NCBI GenBank assembly: GCA_963729625.1
Contig: CAVSOU010000008.1
Span: 1-64,000 of the forward strand
Direction: 5' to 3'
Source of the DNA: an uncultured bacterium
GTDB lineage: Bacteria > Chloroflexota > UBA5177 > JANWHV01
DNA: 64,000 nt
In this document: positions 2,298 through 27,309 of the stretch, one piece after another
Numbering within the stretch: the first letter of the stretch is position 1
How the letters are laid out: every line of letters starts with the position of its first letter
Translations under genes and position numbers: made by a program
The notes under the pieces: model-generated
What the model was told of the DNA's origin: nothing
What the model saw: only the letters and a program-made list of their open reading frames with translations
Database searches by the model: none

Positions 2298-2409
2298 TTG
2301 GCAGAGCGACTTCTTCCTGCACGAGCGCGCCTCCACGGCCGACCACCGCGCACGACAGCACCAATGCCAGCAGCAGGCCTTCCTTCCTGCTGCGCGATGG
2401 GGTGTAGCA
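2298..2409 (-). repeat. comM: comM fragment A (leader plus about codons 1-25, start codon CTG, degenerate)
   Basis: Aligns to about 20317-20430; encodes LLALVLSCAVVGRGGALVQEEV versus MLAMVLSCAVVGLDGALVQVEV. Confidence 0.85.
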
Positions 2410-2487
2410 TAGGGAGGGGACTTCTTCGTCTTGGCGCGATGCAGAAGCCCGGGCGGACACAGACGGATTGAGATGCGCCCTCGGCCG

Positions 2488-8559: not shown

Positions 8560-8760
8560 CCCGCAGGTGCCCCACCAGCGCCGCCAGGTGCTCCACCGGG
8601 ATGATCGTCACACCCTCCACCAGGGCCGCTTCCTGCGCGTCCACCGCCGGCACGAACACGGTGGTGATGCCGTGCTCGCGCGCCAGGGCGACCATCGGCA
8701 GGATGCCGTTGGTGTGGCACAGCGTGCCGTCCAGTCCCAGCTCGCCCAGGAAGAGGCAGC
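8560..8760 (-). repeat. comM: comM fragment B (about codons 101-167)
   Basis: CLFLGELGLDGTLCHTNGILPMVALAREHGITTVFVPAVDAQEAALVEGVTIIPVEHLAALVGHLR, near-identical to 19891-20091. Confidence 0.92.
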
Positions 8761-8969: not shown

Positions 8970-9983
8970 ATGGAATCTCGTGAGCGAGTCATCCGCGCAA
9001 TAGGTTTCTCCAAGCCGGATCGACCGCCAATCCAGCACGCCATCCTGCCCGCCGCCCAATATCATTACGGAGCCGCGCTGAAGCAAATCACCGACGCCGT
9101 GCCAGAGGACTTCGGCTGGGGGTTGTTGCCTGATCTGCCTGCCGAGAAGCTTCCACCGCTGTACAAAGAAGGAGAACAGCGAGACGAGTTCGGTACGCTC
9201 TGGAAGGTCACACATCAGGGTAGGTGCGGCATCCCCATCGACTATCCGATTGCTGCGGACTGGAGCAACTACGCAGACTATCGGTGGCCGACGTTCGGGG
9301 CCGGCGTGCCCAAGTATCGCCTCTATAGCGGGCACATGGAGGGAACGAGCGATTCATACTACGCGCGAGGCGCCTGGATCACTTTCTTCGAGCAACTTCA
9401 ACAACTGCACGGGTTCGAGGCGACCCTCGTGGATCTTGCAACGGATCGCCCTGAGATCTACCGTCTGCGCGACGACCTGCTGCGGTTCAACCTGGACTGG
9501 CTTGATCGATGGCTTGCACATGACTACCAGGGGCTGTATTTTGCGGACGATTGGGGTTCCCAGACAAGTCTGCTGATCTCACCGCGCATGTGGCGCACAT
9601 TCTTCAAGCCTGTCTACGCAGCCATGTTTTCCAAGGTCAAAAGAGCGGGCCTGCATGTCTGGTTTCACAGCGACGGCTACATTACCCCGATCTTGCCGGA
9701 TCTGCTCGAGCTCGGGGTCGACGTGCTAAACTGCGAGCATTCGGTGATGGGTCTCGAGAGCTTGAAGCCTTTTGTAGGCAAGATCTGCTTCCGCACGGAC
9801 CTTGACCGGCAGCACGTCCTGCCTTTCTTCAAGCCTGGCGACATAAAGCCATACATCTGGCATTTGTTCGAAAGTCTTGGCACCCCGGCTGGGGGGATCG
9901 TCGCATCCGGCGACGTCGACGAAGATGTGCCGCTCGCGAATATTGAGGCTATGTACCAGGCATTCCTCGATTTCCGCTATTGA
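8970..9983 (+). CDS. URO-D/MtaA-like family protein (paralog 3)
   Basis: SRERVIRAIGFSKPDRPP, ADDWGSQ, ISPRMWRTFFKP, FHSDG; RBS AAAGGAG. Confidence 0.85.
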   Translation: MESRERVIRAIGFSKPDRPPIQHAILPAAQYHYGAALKQITDAVPEDFGWGLLPDLPAEKLPPLYKEGEQRDEFGTLWKVTHQGRCGIPIDYPIAADWSNYADYRWPTFGAGVPKYRLYSGHMEGTSDSYYARGAWITFFEQLQQLHGFEATLVDLATDRPEIYRLRDDLLRFNLDWLDRWLAHDYQGLYFADDWGSQTSLLISPRMWRTFFKPVYAAMFSKVKRAGLHVWFHSDGYITPILPDLLELGVDVLNCEHSVMGLESLKPFVGKICFRTDLDRQHVLPFFKPGDIKPYIWHLFESLGTPAGGIVASGDVDEDVPLANIEAMYQAFLDFRY

Positions 9984-17915: not shown

Positions 17916-17941
17916 CAATCCGGCGCAAGCGATCGCAGACA

Positions 17942-18102
17942 TGCGCCCATCTCAGACAAGGCGATCCGTCAGAGTCCGTTGCTTCGGCATCGGTGTGCGC
18001 TACCGCTCTGCCAACAACAGCAGCGAATTGCCATGCACATGAAGGCATACTCATGCGGTACTGAAAGCGTGAAGGCTAATCCTGTCCGATGGGCGATTGT
18101 GT
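17942..18102 (-). repeat. Conserved non-comM segment adjoining the comM break point (copy 1)
   Basis: Ungapped match to 26015-26141 and 26489-26525, about three-quarters identical by eye. Confidence 0.8.
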
Positions 18103-18381
18103 TCACAACATCAGCACGTTGTGACCGCCCGCCGCCGCCACCTCCAGCGCCCGCTTGACGTGCTCCTGCCCCCGCTCGGCAGCAAGGTCGGAGGCCACCG
18201 CAGGCTCCACGTCGAGGTCGAGTGCCAGCGGCTGGGCCGGCGCGATCGGAGCCTCGCCCCGCAGGTGCCCCACCAGTGCCGCCAGGTGCTCCACCGGGAT
18301 GATCGTCACCCCCTCCACCAGGGCCGCGTGCTGCGCGTCCACCGCCGGCACGAACACGGTGGTGATGCCGTGCTCCCGCGC
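18103..18381 (-). repeat. comM: comM fragment C (about codons 127-217) ending GHNVLML*
   Basis: AREHGITT...AAAGGHNVLML; only 2 mismatches seen against 21100-21356. Confidence 0.92.
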
Positions 18382-18450
18382 TGGGAACAGGCGCAGCCCG
18401 ACGGTGATCGCCCGCGGCACGTGCTGGTCCATGTACAGGGCATGCGGCAC
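18382..18450 (-). pseudogene. N-terminal stub of DUF5615 PIN-like toxin, fused in frame to comM fragment C
   Basis: GTG overlapping the DUF433 stop; VPHALYMDQHVPRAITVGLRL. Confidence 0.7.
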
Positions 18451-18764
18451 TAGCGCCCGACCCGTCCACGAAGACGGGCGTGCAGCGCGGGGGACGATAG
18501 CTGCTTCTGAAGATCCTCCGCCATGGCTTGGCGACGAGCGATATCCTGGTCCAACACACCCTGATGATCCCAGTAGTACGCCAGCGACGAGTAGATCTGG
18601 CCCAACGAGAGATAGGGGAACTGAAAATGTCGCTCCTCGGGGCTCCAACCATGGGCCGTCTGCGCCGTGACGAGTTCCACCACCTTCATCGTGGTGCCGG
18701 CGATGTGCGGCACGCCGTTTTCATCCATGACAATATGCTCGTAGCGCGATTCGACGAACGACAT
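18450..18764 (-). CDS. DUF433 domain antitoxin
   Basis: YEHIVMDENGVPHIAGTTMKVVEL...GWSPEE...PYLSLGQIYSSLAYYWDH; RBS AAGGAG. Confidence 0.85.
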   Translation of the reverse strand: MSFVESRYEHIVMDENGVPHIAGTTMKVVELVTAQTAHGWSPEERHFQFPYLSLGQIYSSLAYYWDHQGVLDQDIARRQAMAEDLQKQLSSPALHARLRGRVGR

Positions 18765-18874
18765 GGTTACGCTCCTTGGGAAGGAAACCGGATGCTTGGC
18801 TGGAGCAGCAGTGCGACACAAGGCTTGTAGTACCAGGTACAGCATACCAGGGCACTTGGCGCCCTGTGATAGCT

Positions 18875-20392
18875 CTACACCTGCTTGCGGGCCCGGTACT
18901 GCAGCGCTTCCGCCGCATGGATGGCCCTGATCTGCTCCGCTCCCGCCAGGTCGGCGATCGTCCGCGCCAGCTTCAGCGTGCGATGGTAGGCCCGTGCGCT
19001 CAGGTGCAGCTGCTGCATCGCCGACTTCAGCAGCCCCTGCGCCGCCTGGTCCGTCGTGCAGTACTTCCGTACCTCGCTCGGCCCCATGTCCGCATTGCTG
19101 ACCATGGCCGTGCCCGCAAACCGCGCCTGCTGCCGCTCCCGCGCTCCCTGCACCCGCGCCCGAACCGCCCGAGACGGCTCGCTCTCCCCTTGCCCCGTCA
19201 GCTTGTCGTACTGCACCCGCGGTACCTCGACGTGAATGTCGATGCGGTCCAGCAGCGGCCCGGACAGCCGGTGCTGGTACTTGGCGATGGTCGCCGGCGA
19301 ACACGTGCACTCCCGCACGCTGTCCCCCGCGTACCCGCACGGGCACGGGTTCATCGCGCCTACCAGCATGAACTTGGCCGGAAAGGTGACCGATCCGTTG
19401 ACCCGGCTGATGGTCACGGTGCCGTCCTCCAGCGGCTGGCGCAGCACCTCCAGCCCGGCCTGGCCGAACTCCGGCAGCTCGTCCAGAAACAGCACCCCGC
19501 GGTGCGCCAGCGAGATCTCGCCCGGCCGCGGCCAGCGCCCGCCCCCCACCAGCCCGGCGTTGCTGATCGTGTAGTGCGGTGCCCGAAACGGCCGCTCCCG
19601 CACCATCGGCTGGTCCGAGGAGAGCATCCCGGCCACCGAGAAGATCTTCGTCGCCTCCAGACTCTCCTCCGCCGTCATCCGCGGCAGAATACCCGGCAGC
19701 GCCCGCGCCAATAGCGTCTTGCCTGCTCCGGGCGCGCCGAACATCAGCACGTTGTGCCCGCCCGCCGCCGCTACTTCCAGCGCCCGCTTCACGTGCTCCT
19801 GCCCCCGCACAGCGGCGAAGTCGGAGGCCACCGCAGGCTCCACGTCCAGGTCGAGCGCCAGCGGCTCCGCCGCCGCGATCGGCCGGTCGCCCCGCAGGTG
19901 CCCCACCAGCGCCGCCAGATGCTCCACCGGGATGATCGTCACCCCCTCCACCAGCGCCGCTTCCTGCGCGTCCACCGCCGGCACGAACACGGTGGTGATG
20001 CCGTGCTCGCGCGCCAGGGCGACCATCGGCAGGATGCCATTGGTGTGGCGCAGTGCCCCATCCAGTCCCAGCTCGCCCAGGAACAGGCAGCCCGTGTCGT
20101 CGAAGACGATCTGCTCCATGGCCCGCAGCACGCCCACGGCCATCGGCAGGTCATAGGAGGGGCCTTCCTTCCGGATGTCTGCCGGGGCCAGATTGACCGT
20201 GATACGCTTGAGCGGAAACGCCAGGCCCGAATTCCTGATTGCAGCCCGCACCCGCTCCTTGGCCTCGTTTACCGCCGCGTCGGGCAGGCCGACGATGGTG
20301 AAGGCCGGTAAGCCGTTGGCGAGATCGACTTCCACCTGCACAAGCGCGCCGTCCAGGCCGACCACCGCGCACGACAGCACCATCGCCAGCAT
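18875..20392 (-). CDS. comM: ComM/YifB Mg-chelatase-like AAA+ ATPase (intact)
   Basis: IVGLPDAAVNEAKERVR, ITVNLAPA, Walker A GAPGAGKT, PFRAPH, LFLDELPEF, NPCPCG, SGPLLDRID, LKLARTIADL. Confidence 0.96.
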   Translation of the reverse strand: MLAMVLSCAVVGLDGALVQVEVDLANGLPAFTIVGLPDAAVNEAKERVRAAIRNSGLAFPLKRITVNLAPADIRKEGPSYDLPMAVGVLRAMEQIVFDDTGCLFLGELGLDGALRHTNGILPMVALAREHGITTVFVPAVDAQEAALVEGVTIIPVEHLAALVGHLRGDRPIAAAEPLALDLDVEPAVASDFAAVRGQEHVKRALEVAAAGGHNVLMFGAPGAGKTLLARALPGILPRMTAEESLEATKIFSVAGMLSSDQPMVRERPFRAPHYTISNAGLVGGGRWPRPGEISLAHRGVLFLDELPEFGQAGLEVLRQPLEDGTVTISRVNGSVTFPAKFMLVGAMNPCPCGYAGDSVRECTCSPATIAKYQHRLSGPLLDRIDIHVEVPRVQYDKLTGQGESEPSRAVRARVQGARERQQARFAGTAMVSNADMGPSEVRKYCTTDQAAQGLLKSAMQQLHLSARAYHRTLKLARTIADLAGAEQIRAIHAAEALQYRARKQV

Positions 20393-20434
20393 CAGGTCGC
20401 TTCCTCCCTGCTACGCGACGGAGTGTAGCACACC

Positions 20435-20749
20435 CTATTCCCGGCTGCGGAGGATCGTAGCGAGCACCCTCGGGTCGCGTCGGCCATGGAGCACGGCGAC
20501 CACCCACAGCGGCTTCTCATCAGGCGCGTAGGCGATGAGATAGTCGTACAGCCGCACGAAGCGCAAGGACTGCGACATCAGATCTGGACGTCGATGCCCC
20601 TGATGCGGAAAGGGGACGAGGTTCCGTATTCGCTCGAAGATCTCGTCCACCACCCGGTCCGCGGCGTCGGGGCCATCCGGTGCGATATAGGCGTGAATCT
20701 CGCGCAGATCCTGCAACACTCCAGGATGGAGCCCGTACCGCATCTTCAT
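20435..20749 (-). CDS. RelE/ParE family toxin
   Basis: QDLREIHAYIAPDGPDAADRV, FPHQGHRRPDL, YLIAY, VVAVLHGRRD. Confidence 0.9.
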   Translation of the reverse strand: MKMRYGLHPGVLQDLREIHAYIAPDGPDAADRVVDEIFERIRNLVPFPHQGHRRPDLMSQSLRFVRLYDYLIAYAPDEKPLWVVAVLHGRRDPRVLATILRSRE

Positions 20750-20994
20750 GCTGTGCGTGTACGCTTTGCCGCGAATTCACCTTTCAAGAGGGCATGGGCT
20801 TCTTCGCCATCAATGGGTTGGACTCTTCCACTCTTGAGGTCGTCGTAGCGGCGATCCAGCAGCTGGCGCACATCCGAAAGGGCCGCGAAGTACCCGGTCA
20901 TGGCTTCCGCGAAGAGCTCGTCTAGCGGGCGTCCGGTGTCGGTGACCCAGCGATCGATCTTGGCTTGCAGGTCGGCAGTGAGGTGTATTTCCAT
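20746..20994 (-). CDS. Antitoxin (ParD-like) of the RelE/ParE pair
   Basis: 82 aa, ATGA overlap with toxin, C-terminus DDLKSGRVQPIDGEEA; RBS GGAGG. Confidence 0.8.
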   Translation of the reverse strand: MEIHLTADLQAKIDRWVTDTGRPLDELFAEAMTGYFAALSDVRQLLDRRYDDLKSGRVQPIDGEEAHALLKGEFAAKRTRTA

Positions 20995-21096
20995 ATCCTG
21001 GTACCTCCACTCCACATCAATTTCTCTCCATCGTATTCTCTCCATCGTAGCACGGCACGTGCGGCTACGGCCTCTCGACGGTCCACAGGTACACTG

Positions 21097-21506
21097 CGCC
21101 CGCCCGCCGCCGCCACCTCCAGCGCCCGCTTCACGTGCTCCTGCCCCCGCTCGGCAGCAAGGTCGGAGGCCACCGCAGGCTCCACGTCGAGGTCGAGTGC
21201 CAGCGGCTGGGCCGGCGCGATCGGCGCCTCGCCCCGCAGGTGCCCCACCAGTGCCGCCAGGTGCTCCACCGGGATGATCGTCACCCCCTCCACCAGGGCC
21301 GCGTGCTGCGCGTCCACCGCCGGCACGAACACGGTGGTGATGCCGTGCTCCCGCGCCAGCGCTACCATCGGCAGGATGCCGTTGGTGTGGCGCAATGTGC
21401 CGTCCAGACCCAATTCACCCAGGAACAGGCTGCCCGTGTCGTCGAAGACGATCTGCTCCATGGCCCGCAGCACCCCCACGGCCATCGGCAGGTCGTAGGA
21501 CGGGCC
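21097..21506 (-). repeat. comM: comM fragment D (about codons 77-212)
   Basis: GPSYDLPMAVGVLRAMEQ...ALEVAAAGG, then diverges (RSVPV). Confidence 0.92.
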
Positions 21507-21726
21507 CTACGTCCAGAATTACCCATACCTGCTGCAACGGTCCGCAAATGATGGTCGGTGGGGGCGCGGCCCTGCACGAGTTGCAGTTATGTCGGATAGT
21601 TCCTATGGTCGCTGTCATCAGCGAAAATGGGTATCGAGACCGGTTCGGCTCACCCGGCAGCGAGTTGATTGCGCAGGGCACCCTAACGCCTGCTCACCAC
21701 TATCAAGCGCGTGCACCGTGCGTCTC

Positions 21727-25848: not shown

Positions 25849-26014
25849 GACCAAACTCGCTGACACTTCACCGAGCCGCGACCACCATCACGTGCCGGCA
25901 TGCAGATAGAGGACGCTCCGTCATCCAGTATGAACGAACTGGTGCCCGCCTGCTGTGTCCTTGCGTACATTTCATCGCATGTTCGTGCGCTCGACTCGGA
26001 GTTGCTGCAATACC

Positions 26015-26525
26015 TGCGCCCATGTCCGAGCAGGTGATCCGTCGGTATCCGCAGTCTCGGCAGCCCCGTGCGCTGCCATTTTGCCAACAACAGCAGCGAA
26101 TCACAATGCACTTGAAAGCATACTCATGTGATGCTGAAAGCTCACCGACAATACCGCCAATCCCAGCAATCCGAACGGTACGCATGTCAGGCCTCCACCT
26201 CCGTCGCCGCACCACCTTATAGAAAGGAGCCCCGGGCGTCCTCATCGATGCTCGCCTGCTTCGCCCAGCAAGGGCACGACGCCACGCTTGTCCTGCTGAC
26301 CCAGCCGTTGAACCGAGTCCTCGCCCACCACATCCTGCACGTCCGCGACCACTGCCTGCGTGCGCCGACGCGTCACACGAGCAAGCACCTTGATGGAATC
26401 TGGACGCTGATACTCCGCGTATGGCGCGCGCAGAGCTGCCAGCACCTGATCTCTTATGGACTCAACGGGCGCCGGACTGGCACCATCCAGCGTGAAGGCT
26501 CGTCCTGTCCGATGCGTGATTGTAT
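26015..26525 (-). repeat. Conserved non-comM segment (copy 2), split by 350 extra bp
   Basis: 26015-26141 and 26489-26525 match 17942-18102; AGC at both boundaries of the extra DNA. Confidence 0.75.
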
Positions 26526-27232
26526 TCACAACATCAGCACATTGTGCCCGCCCGCCGCCGCTACTTCCAGCGCCCGCTTCACGTGCTCCTGCCCCCGCAC
26601 AGCGGCGAAGTCGGAGGCCACCGCGGGCTCCACGTCCAGGTCGAGTGCCAGCGGCTGGGCCGGCGCGATCGGCCTTTCGCCCCGCAGGTGCCCCACCAGT
26701 GCCGCCAGGTGCTCCACTGGAATGATCGTCACCCCCTCCACCAGGGCCGCCTCCTGCGCGTCCACCGCCGGCACGAATACCGTGGTGATGCCGTGCTCGC
26801 GCGCCAGGGCGACCATCGGCAGAATGCCATTGGTGTGGCGCAGTGCCCCATCCAGTCCCAGCTCGCCCAGGAACAGGCTCCGGGGACCCTCGGGATGATC
26901 GTCGAAGACGACCTGCTCGCCGGCCCGCAACACCCCCACCGCCATCGGCAGGTCATAGGACGGGCCTTCCTTCCGGATGTCTGCCGGGGCCAGATTGACC
27001 GTGATGCGCTTGAGCGGAAACGCCAGGCCCGAATTCCTGATTGCAGCCCGCACCCGCTCCTTGGCCTCGTTGACCGCTGCATCGGGCAGGCCGACGATGG
27101 TGAAGGCAGGGAGACCGTTGGCCAGGTCTACCTCGACCTGCACGAGCGCGCCGTCCAGGCCGACCACCGCGCACGACAGCACCATCGCCAGTATCGGGTC
27201 GCTACCTCACTGCTGCGCGATGGGGTGTAGCA
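26526..27232 (-). pseudogene. comM: comM fragment E (leader plus codons 1-217, start codon ATA) ending GHNVLML*
   Basis: ORF 26526..27185 is near-identical to the ComM N-terminal half; small insertion HPEGPR; stops just before Walker A. Confidence 0.93.
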
Positions 27233-27309
27233 CAGGGCTGCTGCCCAGAGTGGGGGACTATACGGGCTTGACGGCCTTGGCAGCGCGATTGGGCGCAGGA
27301 ACGTTGGGG

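Follow-up and report, generated by a model that had tools for sequence, protein, structure and literature searches.

The AbaR/Tn6022 islands of Acinetobacter have comM as their landing site, use a Tn7-type targeting protein and generate a 5-bp duplication. In staphylococci, SCC/SCCmec elements are inserted at rlmH (orfX) by Ccr serine recombinases and form arrays of stacked elements with repeated att-bearing pieces and recombinase-less cassettes; the repeats in these arrays are short and the target gene stays whole. It has been suggested that mobile elements disable transformation in order to avoid their own removal. The large serine recombinase (LSR) of Listeria phage A118 is said to insert the element inside a competence gene and to split this gene, reportedly as an active, reversible prophage, unlike the scars described here. 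The target of the A118 integrase is comK (PMC3556126), a gene different from and unrelated to comM. In Wolbachia phage WO, the serine recombinase sr1WO integrates into a magnesium chelatase gene, and pieces of this gene flank the prophage (PMC9203015, in its description of the integration). These are whole prophages with both gene halves, unlike the locus analysed here; as far as that description goes, the likeness lies in the target gene. The closest described systems are found in the survey of Durrant 2022 (PMC10083194): in its account of target genes, Mg-chelatase/ATP-dependent-protease homologues are the targets of 12.4% of the predicted site-specific LSRs, and at least three LSR clusters of supplementary file 3 have an attB of the form ...GGCGG(G/C)CACAA(T/C)CTGCTGATG(A/G)TCGG(T/C)CC.... 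In these entries, both the target gene and the stretch within it are the same as in the attB of the locus studied here, which differs from the clusters in containing only dead attL-type scars, with neither recombinase nor attR. LSR targeting of this comM stretch is already published, and the locus adds a decayed example from Chloroflexota.

The window (the whole stretch of DNA that was analysed) comprises the first 64 kb of contig C8 (1.03 Mb), which belongs to a genome of 5.4 Mb in 21 contigs. It contains one intact comM gene, surrounded by five pieces of the comM 5' half which all lie on the strand of the gene and are termed A to E (Table 1). The closest named comM sequences are from Chloroflexota, with a Ktedonobacteraceae MAG (70%) as the top one. 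Two of the pieces, C and E, very probably represent attL-type junctions that were left by two separate insertions of related mobile elements by LSR. Three further 5' pieces are located at the end of contig C7, and comparison of the contig ends of C7 and C8 revealed no overlap. The inventory amounts to at least eight 5' pieces and one whole comM in the middle, and no comM 3' half was found in the genome. The sole extra 3' piece genome-wide (C13:7319-7381) covers the last 63 nt of the gene, is 85.7% identical and ends at the stop codon.

Table 1. Positions of comM, its fragments, the junctions and the neighbouring toxin-antitoxin genes in the window.
Feature	Position	Strand	Remarks
comM fragment A	2298-2414	-	-40 to nt 77; downstream of DUF5615 gene
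comM fragment B	8560-8760	-	nt 302-502; att site not included
Element-end remnant at C	17939-18112	-	element-side (P') arm and ~170 bp related to E flank
Dyad in C	18103-18124		tcacaac-atcagcac-gttgtga, perfect 7/8/7
comM fragment C	18107-18381	-	comM nt 379-653
Predicted crossover of C	18113-18114	-	CT on gene strand, AG on +; mapped from five attL/attR pairs elsewhere
comM-derived part of C	18115-18381	-	nt 379-645; 5' end joined to truncated DUF5615-type toxin gene
DUF433 gene and first 21 codons of DUF5615-type toxin gene	18382-18764	-	toxin gene cut off by C
Intact comM	18875-20392	-	505 aa
Unoccupied attB in intact comM	19722-19771 (approximate)	-	codons AAGGHNVLMFGAPGAG; centre 19746-19747
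Intact-gene counterpart of dyad	19736-19757		gccgaac-atcagcac-gttgtgc
Antitoxin and ParE toxin pair	20435-21045	-	between D and promoter of intact comM
comM fragment D	21095-21517	-	nt 218 to ~637-640
Element-end remnant at E	26012-26535	-	includes 95-codon ORF starting at junction
E counterpart of dyad	26526-26547		tcacaac-atcagcac-attgtgc; arm positions matching 5/7
comM fragment E	26530-27194	-	comM nt 1-653
Predicted crossover of E	26536-26537	-	mapped from five attL/attR pairs elsewhere
comM-derived part of E	26538-27234	-	40 bp upstream of start to gene nt 645

In this genome and two congeners, conservation of the comM unit begins 40 bp ahead of the start and extends as far as the stop codon, and in all three genomes of the genus with the gene the DNA outside this unit is unrelated on either side. 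The point at which homology starts, 40 bp upstream, coincides with an extended -10-like TGCTACAyT (20393-20432, 27195-27234 and 2373-2414 in the window; also in loci L002 and L003). In the congener G001, comM pieces likewise lie beside the intact gene. The intact comM was considered as a chimera joined at the att site; no sign of this was found, its 5' part (84.5%) and 3' part (86.2%) being about equally distant from the G001 orthologue. One sequencing run yielded a small number of short contigs that match 18352-20895 at 99% identity or more, with no joints and a depth too low for variants. A metagenome scan with fragment E revealed no strain-level relative (best match 81% identical), and of 80 metagenome loci judged by regular expression at the att site 60 were intact, one was broken and 19 were not recognised.

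The anatomy of the two junctions was compared with the intact gene. A preceding sequence-only reading had drawn attention to the dyad in C and to its counterparts in E and in the intact gene; all three sequences are present, the one in C as a perfect 7/8/7 repeat. It had also proposed that C and E leave comM at the same base, after GHNVLM and before the Walker A box, with D ending close by, and both statements held against the intact gene: C and E depart from it after ...CTGATGTT, corresponding to comM nt 653 directly before the Walker A codons, and D leaves it at about nt 637-640. On the gene strand, C and E read ...GGHNVLM followed by L and a stop. Beyond this point they have a common foreign flank that begins with GTGAAyACAATC... 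and is about 88% alike over 41 bp, is then interrupted by a 350-bp indel and continues for a further 130 bp at 77.7%; the corresponding alignments are 18066-18381 with 26489-26804 (91%) and 17939-18068 with 26012-26141 (77.7%). No homologue of the 95-aa ORF at junction E exists outside this contig. In E as well as in C, the element arm (26526-26538 and 18103-18115) provides an in-frame TGA two codons after the Met. The reading frame of fragment E is open, its start codon now being ATA; to judge from this frame, the native promoter could still express a 219-residue N-terminal ComM fragment despite the ATA start.

Between the comM parts of C and E there are 23 differences in 275 positions, 18 of them at third codon positions (p = 1e-5), and the comparison of the intact gene with its G001 orthologue shows the same bias (164 of 220). 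This distribution bears on the possibility that there was only a single insertion or truncation, the scar of which was duplicated within the locus, so that C and E are copies which then diverged by decay. Such a history would fit the identical break and the related flank of C and E, and the locus does hold duplicated pieces, C and D being identical at 258 of 262 positions at a distance of 2,975 bp. Decay in place, however, should spread the differences evenly over the codon positions, and the flank of C and E is more diverged (77.7-88%) than the comM part (91.6%). A duplicated random truncation, which the sequence-only reading had named as an alternative, is contradicted by the third-position bias, and we regard duplication of one scar as improbable. 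The bias instead indicates that C and E record separate hits; that the two insertions were independent events is what we infer from it.

Taken alone, the dyad is no more than expected by chance, since 11 perfect 7/8/7 dyads occur in the 64-kb window and about 6.5 per 64 kb are expected from the shuffled 1.03-Mb contig (105.7 in total). Moreover, the perfect dyad of C rests on two bases that are specific to C. Symmetry was therefore also counted over 14 positions to the left and to the right of the gene-strand CT at the centre and amounted to 10 in C, 9 in the intact gene and 7 in E; the contig background has a mean of 3.8, and values of 10 or more occur at 0.09% of the sampled positions.

The surroundings of C and E were searched for a recombinase and for the missing partner sites. 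Pfam analysis of 43 ORFs covering 1-33 kb revealed toxin-antitoxin pairs, transporters, URO-D-like genes and a fucosidase, and no recombinase near C or E; tblastn with an LSR from another genome of the phylum (G006, see below) gave nothing near either junction. The nearest Recombinase-domain match is C8:267,748, about 200 kb past the end of the window, and the nearest Phage_integrase match is C8:169,594, about 105 kb past it. With no LSR near either of them, C and E are classified here as scars of LSR elements and not as working members. The sequence-only reading had noted that no matching attR is visible in the window; attR is absent from the whole genome as well, and neither a second copy of the element arm nor a free attP was found anywhere in it. 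Without recombinase and attR, the scars are no longer mobile, and the absence of attR from the genome also means that the crossover was not mappable directly in the window. The element arm of C and E was recovered only at C and E, both in the own genome (at most 7 mismatches in 30) and in 21 genomes of the class (at most 3 mismatches), and looser junction patterns likewise gave only C and E in the own genome. The exact C/E flank pattern had 0 matches in genome_contigs, and a hypothetical palindromic attP pattern had 0 matches in viral contigs. Searches with PHROGs, NCBIfam and PADLOC returned nothing for the ORFs beside E and the toxin-antitoxin genes.

The same junction was found in other genomes. 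A tblastn search of relatives with comM revealed fragments of comM aa 1-218 in G006 and G304, which represent different families of the phylum. These fragments end with GGHN(V/M)LM followed by GTG..., and a convergent LSR gene comes directly after; the LSR of G006 has the domains Resolvase, Recombinase and Zn_ribbon_recom, and G304 retains a C-terminal LSR piece that matches the G006 LSR at 1e-22. Both genomes were found by comM similarity alone, without the junction pattern. The unpublished genomes G018, G055, G175, G226 and G271 enter the tallies only. In genome_contigs, the G006 LSR matched only its own record and one weak sequence; in 401 genomes of the phylum it matched 23 places in 19 genomes, and only 3 of these 23 loci, one of them the G006 query locus, lie beside comM pieces. 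Two groups of apparently split genes were discarded on inspection: the "two-match" comM genes of family f35 are whole genes with a divergent linker, and the "split" in the comM of G161 is a run of N.

A degenerate junction pattern was then run against 185,579 species genomes and gave 101 matches, of which 80 loci were fetched. In 33 of the 80, a comM 5' part stops at the site. With even base composition, about 140 matches to the pattern would arise by chance, enough to explain the roughly 46 fetched loci without any comM. According to the record titles, the 33 loci belong to Alpha- and Betaproteobacteria, Chloroflexota, Planctomycetota, Gemmatimonadota, Elusimicrobia, Omnitrophota, Armatimonadota and others. 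Downstream DNA was sufficient at 28 of them: an LSR gene is present at the junction in eight, a small resolvase in one and a tyrosine integrase fragment beside an IS in one. The remaining 18 have no recombinase within 2.5 kb and carry cargo such as AbiE, restriction-modification genes, a reverse transcriptase or a STAND NTPase. The pattern fixes TGTG after ATGN in the element arm, so that the likeness of the first 9 element-arm bases among these loci exists by construction. Relatives show no scatter of break points at this site, and the earlier proposal that C and E are attL-like hybrids and that the intact gene carries attB is supported.

Two side observations were made among the pattern matches. 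L171, from the Patescibacteria group, contains a whole comM in which TGA stands for two of the Walker A glycines and is an accidental match; the genome fits a genetic code that reads TGA as glycine. In L143, L150 and L140, from other phyla, the att-like sequence is repeated at a distance of 48 to about 130 bp, with HNI(L/F)MLCTVY occurring twice, and these doubled copies may be a nearly empty tandem insertion.

Both comM halves are retained in five of the genomes from the pattern scan (G401-G405), and an LSR is present in every one of these complete elements. Four of the elements have sizes of 9.1, 13.7, 16.5 and 25.8 kb, and the fifth is split over two contigs. With the CT of the H-N-x-L-M Leu codon as the axis, 13-17 of 20 positions are mirror-symmetric in their element arms and 10-13 of 20 in their gene arms. 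The attL/attR identity runs of the five pairs are AACCTGCT, ACAATCTCCTGATGGT, TCCTGATG, CACAACATGCT and CTGATG, which have only CT in common: in G405 and G402 identity ends right after CT, and in G403 there is none to the left of it. The exchange must take place within the shared run; if all five elements use the same position, the crossover is at CT. Exchange at a central dinucleotide is characteristic of serine recombinases.

This position was transferred to C and E (Table 1). The CT is the exact centre of the 8-bp "spacer", and the dyad of C is made up of the inner half-sites of the attL-type hybrid, namely the comM-derived arm CACAAC (on the gene strand) and the element-derived arm GTTGTG. 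The likeness of C and E to the gene continues for 6 nt past the crossover, and this extra GATGTT is shared with the gene because the element arm resembles it. The element arm of C agrees with that of the 9-kb LSR element of G405 at 17 of 21 positions, the first 9 bases being fixed by the search pattern. What lifts the dyad above chance is the wider symmetry on the same axis, the recurrence in unrelated genomes and the coincidence of this axis with the mapped crossover. Two C7 fragments (C7:679388-679394 and 681080-681086) stop matching the gene exactly after CT, consistent with a dinucleotide crossover. The flank of the C7 fragments lacks the usual element arm; it contains a palindrome of 10 bp (CCATATATGG) and a gene for an RHH antitoxin.

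These results argue against the enzyme class that had been proposed from the dyad. The sequence-only reading had taken the dyad for the core site of a tyrosine recombinase, with inverted arms on either side of a 6-8-bp spacer. Its 7/8/7 layout is in keeping with such sites, and at the junction L176 a Phage_integrase fragment lies 50 bp away, next to the IS mentioned above. A tyrosine recombinase, however, requires an identical 6-8-bp overlap in both partners, and attL/attR identity in the five pairs overlaps in the central 2 bp only, so that the 8-bp spacer does not behave as an overlap region. Moreover, homologous junctions adjoin LSR genes at 8 of 28 loci and in 5 of 5 complete elements, as against a tyrosine integrase fragment at 1 of 28, and the window has no Phage_integrase match. 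An origin of the dyad as a tyrosine-recombinase core is highly improbable. Least probable of all is a Tn7-like, TnsD/TniQ-guided transposon insertion into comM or an unspecific deletion end point: the end points of A and B and the 5' ends of C and D are indeed arbitrary, but Pfam revealed no transposase or Tns-type genes in the ORFs scanned beside the window fragments or at the homologous junctions except the one IS (L176), the five complete elements lack the 5-bp target duplication by which AbaR/Tn6022 insertions are marked, and random truncation is excluded by the recurrence of one exact junction in 33 loci of many phyla.

We infer that an enzyme of the LSR class made C and E as well, and the following course of events is proposed for them. 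The LSR would recognise an imperfect palindrome in comM, about 40-50 bp long and coding for AAGGHNVLM-FGAPGAG. In both partners it would cut at the CT in the centre, within the Leu codon (comM nt 646-647), before rejoining them, and the insertion would split comM just before the Walker A box. The element arm (GAT-GTTGTGAAC...) mirrors the gene arm (...G(G/T)CACAAC-GTG) about CT, and this mirroring accounts for the dyad. Later the elements decayed, leaving at most 0.5 kb of each end, without recombinase or attR, and the intact comM, 1.4 kb from C, carries an empty copy of the target. Counting against this account, D, with its break near nt 637, and the C7 fragments, which have no GATGnTGTG arm, do not fit the junction type. 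The combination of a crossover at CT before Walker A with mirrored arms provides a rule for recognising scars without a recombinase.

The fragments also carry information on the history of the alleles. Differences from the intact gene fall on third codon positions in 35 of 46 cases for E, 26 of 41 for D, 17 of 24 for C, 8 of 10 for B and 15 of 22 for C7a, and this bias equals that of the G001 orthologue. It indicates that the fragments diverged as working genes and did not decay in place. The fragments are pieces of different alleles, 5-11% apart (18% for the short C7b piece). C and D, nearly identical in their comM parts, have different foreign flanks, and their likeness suggests either a recent gene conversion or a Campbell-type insertion in which one fragment recombined homologously with another. 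D breaks 9-10 nt before CT, and its flank contains CTGTGGAC, which is reminiscent of LSR element arms. The break of a comM fragment in G130 lies within a base or two of that of D; both D (21082-21100) and the G130 fragment (L089, ~6140) break at GGCGGG(C), and their flanks are unrelated.

One 5' and one 3' half are to be expected after an LSR insertion, and the pattern of the locus departs from this. A tentative explanation, which we consider possible but doubtful, is that serine-recombinase islands knocked out comM several times and that a working comM of a different allele was restored each time. Restoration could proceed by re-import from related strains, anchored on the 3' half; alternatively, the islands could themselves carry a comM 5' part (from the promoter to CT) and rebuild the target, in an accretion like that of SCC. 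Shuffling by recombination between fragments may have contributed as a further process. Repeated knockout and restoration would explain why four or five alleles are represented by at least eight 5' fragments, why there is no 3' half and why the intact gene is bounded by toxin-antitoxin genes. In the literature searched, no description of a target-rebuilding serine-recombinase element was found. Unlike those of SCC arrays, the repeats of this locus consist of up to 650 bp of the comM 5' half; they derive from distinct alleles and flank the intact gene on either side. Among these observations, only the accumulation of 5' fragments from different alleles may be new. Stacked alleles without a 3' half suggest that a gene required for natural transformation was lost and restored repeatedly; should this be confirmed, it would bear on the idea that mobile elements disable transformation.

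Toxin-antitoxin pairs occur at most fragment boundaries. At the comM fragment boundaries four kinds were noted: ParE, DUF433/DUF5615 twice and RHH/VapC twice. They are located at 20435-21045, 18382-18764 and 2550-2762 of the window and at 9138-9356 and 10408-11048 of L004 (C7 end). These pairs may be the deletion-resistant parts of dead islands. A 15-kb block was at one point thought to have been inserted between the DUF433 gene and its DUF5615 partner; this was dropped, as the two genes belong to different pairs.

Finally, a second cluster of comM break points was observed in relatives at about aa 335-365 (G190, G034, G210, G048, G339, G013, G007 and G012). It looks like the product of a different element class, one that overlaps or replaces the 3' part of the gene. 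In G190 (C44:91753-132606), 39 kb lie between comM aa 1-363 and aa 337-503; G034 has 12 comM pieces, mostly from about aa 347 to 503, and several genomes have extra comM 3' pieces beside an intact gene.
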